Below, piece by piece: positions 53 to 3,608 of a stretch of 13,911 nt of DNA. How positions within the stretch are numbered: position 1 is the first letter of the stretch; each line of letters opens with the position of its first letter. The position numbers and the translations under genes are program-made. Source of the DNA: Promethearchaeia archaeon (GTDB lineage Archaea; Asgardarchaeota; Lokiarchaeia; Sigyniarchaeales; SOKP01); the NCBI GenBank assembly GCA_046483985.1, contig JAWOCD010000047.1, positions 1 through 13,911 on the forward strand, in the 5' to 3' direction. The notes beneath the pieces are model-generated. The model saw nothing but the letters and a program-made list of their open reading frames with translations, was not told the DNA's origin and ran no database searches.

Positions 53-382
53 CAGTATTGGGCCCGAATCATTGAACTGGTGGAAGCAATGGAACTGATT
101 AAGCAATACCTCGAAGATCCAGACATTGTCAATCCGGACTGCAAGACCTTAGATGTCGAACCGAAGGAAGGAGTGGGTGTCGGTGTGACCGAAGCTCCGC
201 GCGGTTTATTGTTATATAATATCTGGTCTGACGCCGAAGGAATGTGCAAGAAACTCAATCTGTTAGTTGCCACGAACCATAATATTGCCGGCATTGAGAA
301 ATCCTTAATGCATACGGCAAAACAAGTATTCGAAGATAAGGCATTGGACGGATTAGACTTGCCAGATCCTTGGATTGAATAA
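53..382 (+). CDS. vhuA: C-terminal part of a group 3c [NiFe(Se)] hydrogenase large subunit (VhuA/MvhA), 5'-truncated in this window
   Basis: The frame is open from 44 and reads QYWARIIELVEAMELIKQYLEDPDI...GVGVTEAPRG...NLLVATNHN, all typical MvhA C-terminal motifs. It ends at TAA 380-382 without the DPCxxCxxH motif, which the next small gene supplies. An in-frame TAG lies at 41-43. Confidence 0.85.
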   Translation, partial: QYWARIIELVEAMELIKQYLEDPDIVNPDCKTLDVEPKEGVGVGVTEAPRGLLLYNIWSDAEGMCKKLNLLVATNHNIAGIEKSLMHTAKQVFEDKALDGLDLPDPWIE

Positions 383-429: not shown

Positions 430-582
430 ATGAGTGAGGATGTACCTGAAGGAGTAGTAAACCTCTTAGAAATGATAGTCCGCTGTTATGACTGCTGATT
501 ATCATGTGCCGCCCACATCACAGTTGTTGATGAGGATGGAAAAGAGCTTTACTCTCGTGAGATGAATGTTGGTTTAGGATGA
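430..582 (+). CDS. vhuU: Selenocysteine-containing hydrogenase peptide VhuU (50 aa, Sec at TGA 496-498)
   Basis: Manual translation from ATG 430 gives MSEDVPEGVVNLLEMIVRCYDC-U-LSCAAHITVVDEDGKELYSREMNVGLG*. The TGA falls exactly on the Ni-ligand position of the RxxDPCxxCxxH motif. It sits directly after a large subunit that lacks this motif, with a SECIS-like hairpin downstream. Confidence 0.92.
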
Positions 583-696: not shown

Positions 697-1215
697 ATGA
701 CAATGGATTTCGAATTTAGAAAGCAAATTATGGATTTTCATATTGGGCCTGATTTAATTAAGTATTGCTATCAATGCCGTAGATGCACGGACAATTGTCC
801 CGTCTCGGATGTCACCGATGAATTTTACAGCAAGCAGTATGACCCAAGAGCAAATATCTTAAATGCTCTGTTGGGATATAAGGATAAGATTTTTTCTGCT
901 GATCCGATTGCCATTTGGGGTTGTACTGTATGTGATACATGCGATGAGGTCTGTCCCCAAGACATCGAATTAACCGAAATTTTTACCTTTCTTAAGAATA
1001 AAAGTATTGAGAAAGGAGATGGGCCAGATTTTCTCTATTCTCAAGCACAGCTTATCTTTGATGAGGCAAAAGCAATTCCCATGCAATCCGCAATTGAGCG
1101 CCGACGCAACCGATTAGATTTACCGGAGATTGAAGCACCAAATACTGATGAGATTCAAGAGTTATTAAAGACTGTAGGAACCGATAAGAAATTAAAAAAC
1201 GAGGTTAACGAATAA
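697..1215 (+). CDS. hdrC: Heterodisulfide reductase subunit C
   Basis: Two 4Fe-4S motifs, CYQCRRCTDNCP and IWGCTVCDTCDEVCPQ; ends 1 bp before hdrB. Confidence 0.9.
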   Translation: MTMDFEFRKQIMDFHIGPDLIKYCYQCRRCTDNCPVSDVTDEFYSKQYDPRANILNALLGYKDKIFSADPIAIWGCTVCDTCDEVCPQDIELTEIFTFLKNKSIEKGDGPDFLYSQAQLIFDEAKAIPMQSAIERRRNRLDLPEIEAPNTDEIQELLKTVGTDKKLKNEVNE

Positions 1216-1216
1216 G

Positions 1217-2092
1217 ATGACAGAGTTTAAAATGTTTGAAGGCTGTACCATCGGGAACCGAATTCCGTTTATAGAAGCTGCTTGCCGTAAGGTGTTTGAT
1301 AAATTAGGTATTGAAACGTCCGAAGCACCCTTTTCATGTTGTCCAGATCCGACAGGAATGAAATCATTTGATAATGATGCTTGGTTAACTATTGGAGCAA
1401 GAAACTTATGTCTTGCCGAGGAAGAAGGTAAAGACATTATTTCCTTGTGCAATGGATGTGCAAACACCCTTTCCGGTGTAGAGCATGAACTAAAGCGCAA
1501 TTCCAATTTAATGGACAAGGTAAATTCTGATTTAGCCAAAATTGGCAAGGAATTTAAGGGGGCTATTTCTGTGGAACATTTTGTTGATGTCTTACTGGAA
1601 AAAATTGATGGAATCAAAAATGCCATAGAAAAACCCTTATCCGAATTAAAGGTTGCATGCCATCCCGGTTGCCACTATATGCGACCAGCAGAATGGATGG
1701 AGGCGGAAGAGGATGTATTTCGTCCAAAAAATCTTCGGAAACTTGTTGCCGCAACTGGGGCAACACCCGTTGATTATGAGGAAGAAGTCTTATGCTGTGG
1801 TTCAGCTGTTTCAAATGCCTACGAAGAACACGGCGAACAAATTCTCAAACAGAAGCTTGATTCCGTTAAAAAAGCGGGAGCAGATTGTATAGTAGTAAAT
1901 TGTCCAGCATGCTTCCAACAGTTTGATACAAAACAACGCGGTCTATCTCGGAAATTTGAAGAAGACTATGATATTCCAGTCCTCTATATCACGGAGCTGA
2001 TAGCTTTGGCAATGGGATTTGAGTCCAAAGAATTGGGAATGAGATATCACAGGACCCGATTACGTAACTTTTTAGCGGACCTAGATTTGTAG
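1217..2092 (+). CDS. hdrB: Heterodisulfide reductase subunit B
   Basis: Two CCG domains: FEGC, SCCP, LCNGC, HPGCH, CCGS, NCPACFQQFD, and IPVLYITELIALAMG near the C-terminus. Confidence 0.93.
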   Translation: MTEFKMFEGCTIGNRIPFIEAACRKVFDKLGIETSEAPFSCCPDPTGMKSFDNDAWLTIGARNLCLAEEEGKDIISLCNGCANTLSGVEHELKRNSNLMDKVNSDLAKIGKEFKGAISVEHFVDVLLEKIDGIKNAIEKPLSELKVACHPGCHYMRPAEWMEAEEDVFRPKNLRKLVAATGATPVDYEEEVLCCGSAVSNAYEEHGEQILKQKLDSVKKAGADCIVVNCPACFQQFDTKQRGLSRKFEEDYDIPVLYITELIALAMGFESKELGMRYHRTRLRNFLADLDL

Positions 2093-2319: not shown

Positions 2320-2589
2320 ATGGATAAAAATGAACTCTATGTACTAAGAAAAAAGAAGATTAAGGATGAGATCCGAGCGGCAAGGAGAATTATAAAAAAG
2401 AGAGTGGAGCCGCTAAAAATAGCAGATAAGTTTATTCACGACTCGTTTGAATTAATGAAAGATAGAATTGTGAAAAATAATCCTGAAATCAAAGATGAAA
2501 GATTAAGGGAAAGAGTGCATGAGATATTAGATATTACTCGAAAAATCAAATCTAAACGGAAAAGAGGTAGAAAAATTGGCAGAAATTGA
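2320..2589 (+). CDS. Small basic protein, probable partner or antitoxin of the downstream nucleotidyltransferase
   Basis: 89 aa, Lys/Arg-rich, preceded by GGAGG and overlapping the next gene by 14 nt. Confidence 0.65.
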   Translation: MDKNELYVLRKKKIKDEIRAARRIIKKRVEPLKIADKFIHDSFELMKDRIVKNNPEIKDERLRERVHEILDITRKIKSKRKRGRKIGRN

Positions 2590-3157
2590 GAAAGTCCTTT
2601 CTCGTTTAGAAAAAATATTTAATACTACAAAATTAAAATATGTTATTGTTGGTGGTATTGCCGTTATCCATTATGGTCATGTGAGAGCCACCCAAGATAT
2701 AAACCTAATCATTGAAGATAATCCTTCAAAAATTTCTCATTTCTTGAATCTATTGGAGGTTTATGATTTTGGTGTTATGAATAAACAAATTAAAAAGGCA
2801 TACCAAGAAAGAACCCACTCTTCTATATTTGATGAAAAGAGCTTTTTAAGATTGGATATTAAAGTAGCCGATAAACAAAGGGAACTAGAGGTTCTTCGTA
2901 ACGCTAAATTTAAAAATATCCTTGATTGTAACTTATCTATTGCTCCTTTGGAATATATTTTACTCGGAAAAATTATTTACCTTGGAAAAATTGATGATAT
3001 CCCGAATTCAGAATTAATGGAATATCAAGATGTGGGAGATTTTTTGACCCTTTTTTATACCCATAAAGACGAGGTAGATTTAAGCTTTCTTAAAAAAAAA
3101 ACTAACCAACTTGGTCTTAAAACGACGCTTTCTCGTCTCCTAAATATTGATTTTTGA
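2576..3157 (+). CDS. Pol-beta superfamily nucleotidyltransferase (AbiEii/DUF6036-like)
   Basis: YVIVGGIAVIHYGHVRATQDINL matches the GG...RxTxDxD signature except that the second Asp is Asn. RLDI, PLEYILLGK and a late D(V)xD are also present. TTG start. Confidence 0.8.
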   Translation: MAEIEKVLSRLEKIFNTTKLKYVIVGGIAVIHYGHVRATQDINLIIEDNPSKISHFLNLLEVYDFGVMNKQIKKAYQERTHSSIFDEKSFLRLDIKVADKQRELEVLRNAKFKNILDCNLSIAPLEYILLGKIIYLGKIDDIPNSELMEYQDVGDFLTLFYTHKDEVDLSFLKKKTNQLGLKTTLSRLLNIDF

Positions 3158-3164
3158 TGGAAAA

Positions 3165-3608
3165 TTAAACCTTTGAGAACTTTTCAGAGATTTCATTTAG
3201 ATTCTTTACATTTTTTTTCAATTCCTCTGGAAGTTTCTTAATTATTTTCTCATCTGCCGTACAGAATATTTCTCCCCAATTTATACTTAAGGCAATATAA
3301 GCAGCATCATATATTGAGATATTATGCCTTATAGCAATTTTGACCATACTTTCCCTGATTTCACCTTGTATTCTTTTTGACGTAAATCTATAATTTTCTA
3401 AACTTACTCCAGCATTATTAATTTCTTCCCGAGTGAATAGTCCGCTATATTTCAAGGCATTTAAAACTTGATAGAAGAGAAAATGTGGAATTATTAATTC
3501 TACTTTCCCGTCTAAAAATTTATCTCTAATCATTAAGGCTATATTCGAATTTTTCTCTTGAATAAACCACTTAACAAGGATATTAGCATCAACGATTAAT
3601 TTATCCAT
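3165..3608 (-). CDS. vapC: PIN-domain VapC-family ribonuclease toxin
   Basis: LIVDANILVKWF, P..LFYQVLNAL, ISIYDAAYIALS and TADEK motifs in a 147-aa protein. Confidence 0.9.
   Translation of the reverse strand: MDKLIVDANILVKWFIQEKNSNIALMIRDKFLDGKVELIIPHFLFYQVLNALKYSGLFTREEINNAGVSLENYRFTSKRIQGEIRESMVKIAIRHNISIYDAAYIALSINWGEIFCTADEKIIKKLPEELKKNVKNLNEISEKFSKV

Follow-up and report, generated by a model that had tools for sequence, protein, structure and literature searches.

The window, that is, the whole stretch of DNA analysed here, comprises the first 13,911 bases of a contig (C75) from a Lokiarchaeia/Promethearchaeia metagenome-assembled genome of 4.06 Mb, 35% G+C and 128 contigs, with a completeness of 97%. 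Close to the start of the contig, genes for a hydrogenase large subunit and for two heterodisulfide reductase subunits flank a short gene with an in-frame TGA:

1-58: contig-start sequence, non-homologous to vhuA, with an in-frame TAG at 41-43
59-382, plus strand: final 107 codons (3' part) of vhuA, the large-subunit gene of a Vhu/Mvh-type [NiFe(Se)] hydrogenase; stop codon TAA at 380-382
430-582, plus strand: vhuU, a predicted selenoprotein gene of 50 codons; real stop codon TGA at 580-582
430-516, plus strand: predicted mature VhuU peptide, residues 1-29, ending at His29 (514-516)
496-498, plus strand: UGA, putative codon for selenocysteine (U23), where the Ni-ligand motif DPCxxCxxH has its first Cys
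517-579, plus strand: VhuU tail, residues 30-50 (21 residues)
697-1215, plus strand: hdrC-like gene, for a 4Fe-4S dicluster heterodisulfide reductase subunit (Pfam Fer4_8; TIGR03290 HdrC, E 7e-22, below the cut-off)
1217-2092, plus strand: hdrB-like gene with two CCG domains (Pfam CCG, E 4.9e-29; TIGR03288 HdrB, E 1.2e-83, 280.8 bits against a cut-off of 345)

The vhuA frame (frame 2) ends ...DLPDPWIE-TAA and contains no DPCxxCxxH motif, its match to the NCBIfam model NF041785 VhuA (E 2.9e-22) extending from profile position 329 to 417 of 418. The missing motif is found in the short gene that follows, which reads MSEDVPEGVVNLLEMIVRCYDC-U-LSCAAH-ITVVDEDGKELYSREMNVGLG and then stops, when 430-582 is translated with TGA as selenocysteine (U). 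This gene is missing from the mechanical list of open reading frames, where the plus strand is empty from 382 to 697, since the in-frame TGA cuts it into pieces of 22 and 27 codons. Translation and list thus agree with the first-pass annotation, which had described a large subunit ending without its C-terminal ligand motif, followed by a 50-codon frame, absent from the ORF track, that supplies the motif with TGA 496-498 at the ligand position and a 21-residue tail after the His.

Pfam searches of the 112-residue vhuA fragment and of the 51-residue VhuU peptide gave no match. The best NCBIfam model for the peptide is NF041786 VhuU (E 1.4e-14, 53.6 bits with U scored as C, against a curated equivalog cut-off of 70 bits), and the NCBIfam scores of VhuU, VhuA, VhuG, HdrB and HdrC all lie below the curated equivalog cut-offs. 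In a PDB sequence search the peptide aligns with residues 422-453 of 5odc_F, the C-terminal ligand segment of MvhA (DPCLSCATH), with a Cys on the TGA, and end to end (residues 2-27) with 9sfi_M, a 27-residue chain named "F420 non-reducing hydrogenase subunit", with X (Sec) on the TGA. Hence in both the reference large subunit and the solved VhuU chain the Cys or Sec falls on the TGA, an alignment that the first-pass annotation had proposed as a check. A paralogous large subunit on contig C2, which shares 96.6% DNA identity with the vhuA of the window, likewise follows the NF041785 VhuA profile as far as position 417 of 418 and has no C-terminal ligand motif; the closest PDB chain is 9sfi_g (418 aa, E 2.4e-100), with 5odc_F at E 8.4e-81. 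From the end point of the VhuA match and the fit of the peptide to the 9sfi chain it follows that the large subunit is split at the position where methanococcal Vhu is split, as had been claimed at the outset. Judged by its sequence, including the N-terminal RxCGxCxxxH motif (read as RICGICPIPHH in a vhuA 5' end on contig C98), the large subunit is closest to VhuA/MvhA and would thus be of the Mvh/Vhu type, group 3c-like.

That standard gene calling yields no ORF at 430-582, and that the short peptide has no Pfam match, is what would be expected if TGA 496-498 were a true stop and the region the decayed C-terminus of a once-fused large subunit, with no functional product. The conservation of the frame makes this exceedingly unlikely. 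Of 41 genomes of this order searched at the protein level, 37 yielded the ORF, nearly always with one in-frame TGA, and in the re-extracted loci of this order the TGA stands constantly at one position; among them are one TGT (motif DCC) and one DPU replacing DCU. Adding 80 loci found in GTDB species representatives to these same-order loci gives a set of 111, in which the codon at the Sec position is TGA in 110 and TGT in one. Across these loci, single-base differences from the window in the next six codons (LSCAAH) comprise 289 synonymous and no non-synonymous ones; translation therefore runs on through the TGA. Recurrence of a TGA-containing ORF in 37 of 41 same-order genomes and in 111 loci is well beyond what chance would produce. 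Furthermore, the tail is 21 residues long in 110 of the 111 loci, with several of its positions varying synonymously only, and the start codon and N-terminus of vhuU are conserved in relatives, while a true stop would leave the large subunit without two of its four metal ligands. The first-pass annotation had looked to conservation on both sides of the TGA for support, and had named TGC or TGT in relatives, or loss of conservation behind the TGA, as speaking against recoding; apart from the one TGT, its expectation of a conserved, recoded codon is borne out.

In one relative (L050, G027:C117, 1492-1638 on the minus strand of the oriented locus), the sole Cys variant, with TGT and the motif DCC, vhuU remains a separate small ORF, the tail end differs (...FIINIL-TAA) and the NVGLG-TGA end is lost; by eye, no hairpin resembling the RNA element described below was seen after this gene. 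In another orthologue (L043, G010:C49) an in-frame TAA occurs four codons past the His (...HITVVDE*), and the remaining tail codons and the RNA element are still recognisable on the 3' side; this TAA may stem from a sequencing error, or it may hint that the greater part of the tail can be dispensed with.

If the UGA is translated, it could in principle be read as Cys or Trp by near-cognate decoding and not as selenocysteine, and the TGT relative does suggest that Cys is tolerated at this position. Several observations render such decoding very unlikely. TGA is a normal stop in this genome, where it terminates 305 of 1959 long ORFs as well as vhuU itself, and on the same counts we also rejected a genome-wide reassignment of TGA. 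The TGT relative is the very one that has lost the NVGLG-TGA end and is without a visible SECIS-like hairpin, so that it serves as a natural control tying this element to the TGA. A complete selenocysteine pathway is maintained in the genome, together with a covarying SECIS directly 3' of vhuU. The components of the pathway are these:

C17, 67637-67729: tRNA-SeC, anticodon tca (ARAGORN)
C17, 230 bases 3' of tRNA-SeC: SepSecS (390 bits, above the cut-off)
C17: EFSec/SelB-like factor (235.7 bits against a cut-off of 242.25)
C51: PSTK-like kinase (157.9 bits against a cut-off of 290.5)
C97: SelD with one in-frame TGA (169 bits, above the cut-off)

The first-pass annotation had called for a genome search for precisely this machinery, all of which was found, the cut-offs for the PSTK and SelB/EFSec profiles being bacterial or methanogen ones. 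In addition, the genome holds nine matches to the FlpD/MvhD (VhuD) domain, four of which contain two TGAs each.

Immediately downstream of the selenocysteine codon's own frame, and in part within it, lies a candidate selenocysteine insertion element of the lokiSECIS type (an Asgard type I, eukaryote-like SECIS), on the plus strand:

568-640: whole predicted element, beginning inside the last vhuU codons
568-575/633-640: lower helix, its 5' strand formed by the codons for V-G-L
579-582: AUGA, the UGA of which is the vhuU stop codon
583: bulged A between AUGA and the upper helix
584-592/604-612: upper helix of 9 bp
593-603: apical loop of 11 nt, AUAAAUAGUAG
613-614: 3' core GA
617-620/627-630: conserved G+C side hairpin (GCCC/GGGU) between the 3' GA and the lower helix, which makes the element three-armed

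The minimum-free-energy fold of 568-640 has three helices (z = -3.29), and RNAalifold predicted these three helices on 28 orthologous regions as well. Compensatory changes are present in 15 of 19 pairs, two-sided ones in all nine upper-stem and in five of the seven lower-stem pairs; 89.5% of cells are paired, against 30-49% with slid partners, and none of 500 shuffles matches the observed values. The element shows the published lokiSECIS traits, namely AUGA, a 9-bp stem, an 11-nt loop with an A-rich beginning and a final G, and a 3' GA, the ranges of the model being 7-15 bp for the upper stem, 8-20 nt for the apical loop and GA or AA on the 3' side. A strict descriptor found eight matches in the genome, against none in three shuffled genomes, and the eight include both vhuU loci (the second is on C2) as well as sites just 3' of two of the VhuD genes with two TGAs. 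The near-invariant NVGLG-TGA gene end may be due to the position of the lower helix strand 568-575 in the coding region. We considered the terminal TGA 580-582 as a second selenocysteine codon and rejected it, since the SECIS stem comes next and some relatives carry TAA there. At the Rfam gathering thresholds no match was obtained, and no SECIS family appeared at E up to 10; sub-threshold matches over 568-641 were to C/D-box snoRNA families only (E 0.6-5, chance level), and these fit the kink-turn-like AUGA...GA signature.

On these grounds we hold with high confidence that vhuU at 430-582 encodes, as a gene of its own, the C-terminal end of the large subunit of a cytoplasmic [NiFeSe] hydrogenase of the Vhu/Mvh type (group 3c-like) in a Lokiarchaeial archaeon, with UGA as selenocysteine. 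The in-frame UGA 496-498 is very probably read as selenocysteine, as judged from codon conservation and genome content, and the lokiSECIS is proposed to direct this insertion. In such a scheme the ribosome would decode the UGA under the direction of the lokiSECIS, and VhuU would contribute Sec23 and Cys26 (UxxCxxH) as metal ligands, which, together with two cysteines from the N-terminal RxCGxCxxxH of VhuA, would complete the Ni-Fe site. After metal insertion the tail would be cut behind His29, so that VhuA would retain a bound peptide of about 29 residues, and VhuA/VhuU, together with VhuG, a VhuD-type subunit and HdrABC, might then couple H2 oxidation to the reduction of a disulfide and of ferredoxin by electron bifurcation. 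The initial description of the enzyme as an Hdr-coupled NiFeSe hydrogenase is consistent with the adjacent hdrC and hdrB and with the VhuD-type genes elsewhere in the genome. What the analysis shows directly is the gene, where its TGA lies, the conservation flanking this codon, the machinery genes, the structure of the SECIS and the operon context; the incorporation of selenocysteine, the removal of the tail, the assembly of a complex and its substrate in the cell are inferred.

In methanococcal VhuU and in other [NiFe] large subunits the tail is cleaved behind the His. By analogy, the 21-residue tail of VhuU is probably removed behind His29 by an endopeptidase of the HycI type. A search of this assembly for a HycI-family protease with PF01750, with TIGR00072 and by tblastn with the proteases of four relatives found none, while 39 of 40 relatives have exactly one such gene, of ~200 aa. 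Because the relatives have the gene and the assembly is in 128 contigs, we do not take this non-detection as absence, and the likeliest reading is that the protease gene is missing from the bin.

The genome contains a second vhuU copy (G000:C2:52991-53143, minus strand; L021:6992-7144), with 84% amino-acid identity to the first, in which TGA and SECIS are kept. Its locus has the order vhuA-hdrC-hdrB-vhuU, and in the window vhuU stands between vhuA and hdrC. Both arrangements recur among the 111 loci, where vhuA-vhuU-hdrC, as in the window, was found 74 times and hdrB-vhuU 24 times, so that vhuA-vhuU-hdrCB and vhuA-hdrCB-vhuU are both conserved as operon layouts.

The existence of the paralogue raises the question of whether the locus in the window is itself in working order. 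BLAST homology between C75 and the C2 paralogue begins only at base 59, bases 1-70 have no other BLAST match in the whole assembly, and none of the reading frames of bases 1-58 resembles the ...HHTFAYH of the paralogue. These 58 bases are possibly an assembly artefact at a repeat, possibly the end of an inserted element, possibly a true truncation. If the last of these applied, the locus would be a dead partial duplicate with vhuA truncated at base 59, and the working operon would be the one on C2, with the type of gene still correctly identified. In line with this, bases 1-58 are unlike the paralogue, give no VhuA peptide in any frame and contain the TAG at 41-43. The neighbouring evidence comes from contig C98, at both ends of which a VhuG-like gene is followed by a vhuA 5' end with RICGICPIPHH, pointing outward off the contig; these ends overlap C2 by 191 identical bases and do not overlap C75, which again would suit a dead duplicate. 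However, C98 thereby offers two outward vhuG-vhuA 5' ends, for which 3' ends of vhuA are offered by C2 and C75 only, and the assembly evidently broke within two near-identical vhuA copies. Moreover, contig ends at near-identical repeats are liable to assembly error, the layout of the window is the commonest among relatives, and its vhuU, SECIS, hdrC and hdrB are all intact. We therefore consider a dead duplicate unlikely. As a separate observation, the VhuG-like small subunits on C98 (L145:382-1707, minus strand; L146:5245-6642, plus strand), of 441 and 465 aa, are far longer than the 286-position VhuG profile, which aligns to them in two separate stretches, and carry extra sequence.

The first-pass annotation had called the gene hidden. 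It is indeed missed by the ORF list, yet genes of this kind have been in print since 2016. In the text of Mariotti et al. 2016 (PMC4989117), the VhuU of Lokiarchaeota is a peptide of ~50 residues containing one Sec; the lokiSECIS combines a 9-bp stem, preceded by AUGA, with an 11-nt loop that begins with adenines and has a conserved final G, and in VhuU.1 this AUGA doubles as the stop codon. The text of Huang, Xiao & Zhang 2024 (PMC11227280) gives the FrhA/MvhA/VhuU family as present in 68.3% of Sec-using Asgard genomes and describes UGG_CCA-type pairs in the SECIS lower stem. Compared with these texts, the window shares with Lokiarchaeota VhuU.1 the clade (Promethearchaeota and Promethearchaeia being taken as the present names of Lokiarchaeota and Lokiarchaeia), the length of ~50 residues, the single Sec, the 9-bp stem, the 11-nt loop with its A-rich beginning and its final AG, and the overlap of AUGA with the stop codon (PMC4989117), and it shares with the published Asgard SECIS the UGG_CCA pairs of the lower stem (PMC11227280). 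It differs from the lokiSECIS as described in the former in having GA in place of 3' AA, although both occur among relatives, and in the bulged A583 between AUGA and the stem. Since the window matches the Lokiarchaeal VhuU and lokiSECIS as far as those texts describe them, the finding is correct but already known. A CxxCUxxC motif, a side hairpin of the SECIS and the two operon layouts were not found in the text of PMC4989117 and PMC11227280.

Further afield, methanococcal VhuU/VhuA (NF041786, NF041785; 9sfi chains M and g) have a large subunit split at the same point and Sec in UxxCxxH, like the window, but with RAYDPU and a SECIS of the methanogen GAA_A type, whereas the window has RCYDCU, a eukaryote-like SECIS and a non-methanogen host. 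MvhA of the MvhAGD-HdrABC complex of Methanothermococcus thermolithotrophicus (5odc chain F) has in common with the window a homologous large subunit, an aligned C-terminal segment and an association with Hdr; it is, however, one chain with Cys, where in the window the C-terminal segment is a separate gene with a predicted Sec. Similarly, the eukaryotic SECIS with its kink-turn AUGA...GA core resembles the element of the window in this core, in the adenines that open the apical loop and in the lower helix, while the window element has a shorter upper stem, starts in the coding region and bears an extra 3' side hairpin.

As both the VhuU of Lokiarchaeota and its eukaryote-like SECIS are already in the literature, the present locus adds little for the field. 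What it does confirm is that reading the letters is enough to find a recoded gene that ORF-calling programs break up, and that the hydrogenase of a metagenome-assembled genome can be annotated as a complete [NiFeSe] enzyme and not as a large subunit lacking two metal ligands. Of possible interest to specialists are the invariant Cys beside the Sec (DCU), the SECIS with its conserved side hairpin and a lower stem that reaches into the coding region, and the existence of two conserved operon layouts.

The ligand motif at 484-507 (codons 19-26) has the form C19-x-x-C22-U23-x-x-C26 (RCYDCU). In 27 aligned orthologues Cys19 never varies and Cys22 hardly does (L048 has DPU), whereas the aligned references, comprising MvhA, the VhuU of 9sfi and other solved large subunits, are all RAYDPC/U. 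The 80 added loci were found through motif patterns containing RC[YF]D and CCLSCAAH, so that the frequency of DCU among them is biased; the less biased same-order sample has 29 DCU, one DPU and one DCC. A Cys directly before Sec is known from the GCUG end of thioredoxin reductase. It is a tentative and rather doubtful suggestion that the vicinal Cys22-Sec23 pair, with Cys19, might form a reversible Se-S bond or add a further metal contact, by which the Ni site would be protected or gated, and, separately, that the side hairpin 617-630 might be a candidate site for an Asgard SECIS-binding factor. If the former were true, the Cys-Sec pair would represent a type of [NiFeSe] chemistry that the text of neither PMC4989117 nor PMC11227280 describes.

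Directly 3' of the hdrB gene, the window contains a small unannotated ORF (2320-2589), which overlaps a DUF6036 nucleotidyltransferase gene (2576-3157), and, on the opposite strand, a PIN-domain gene (3165-3608); the stretch 2320-3608 looks like toxin-antitoxin-type modules.
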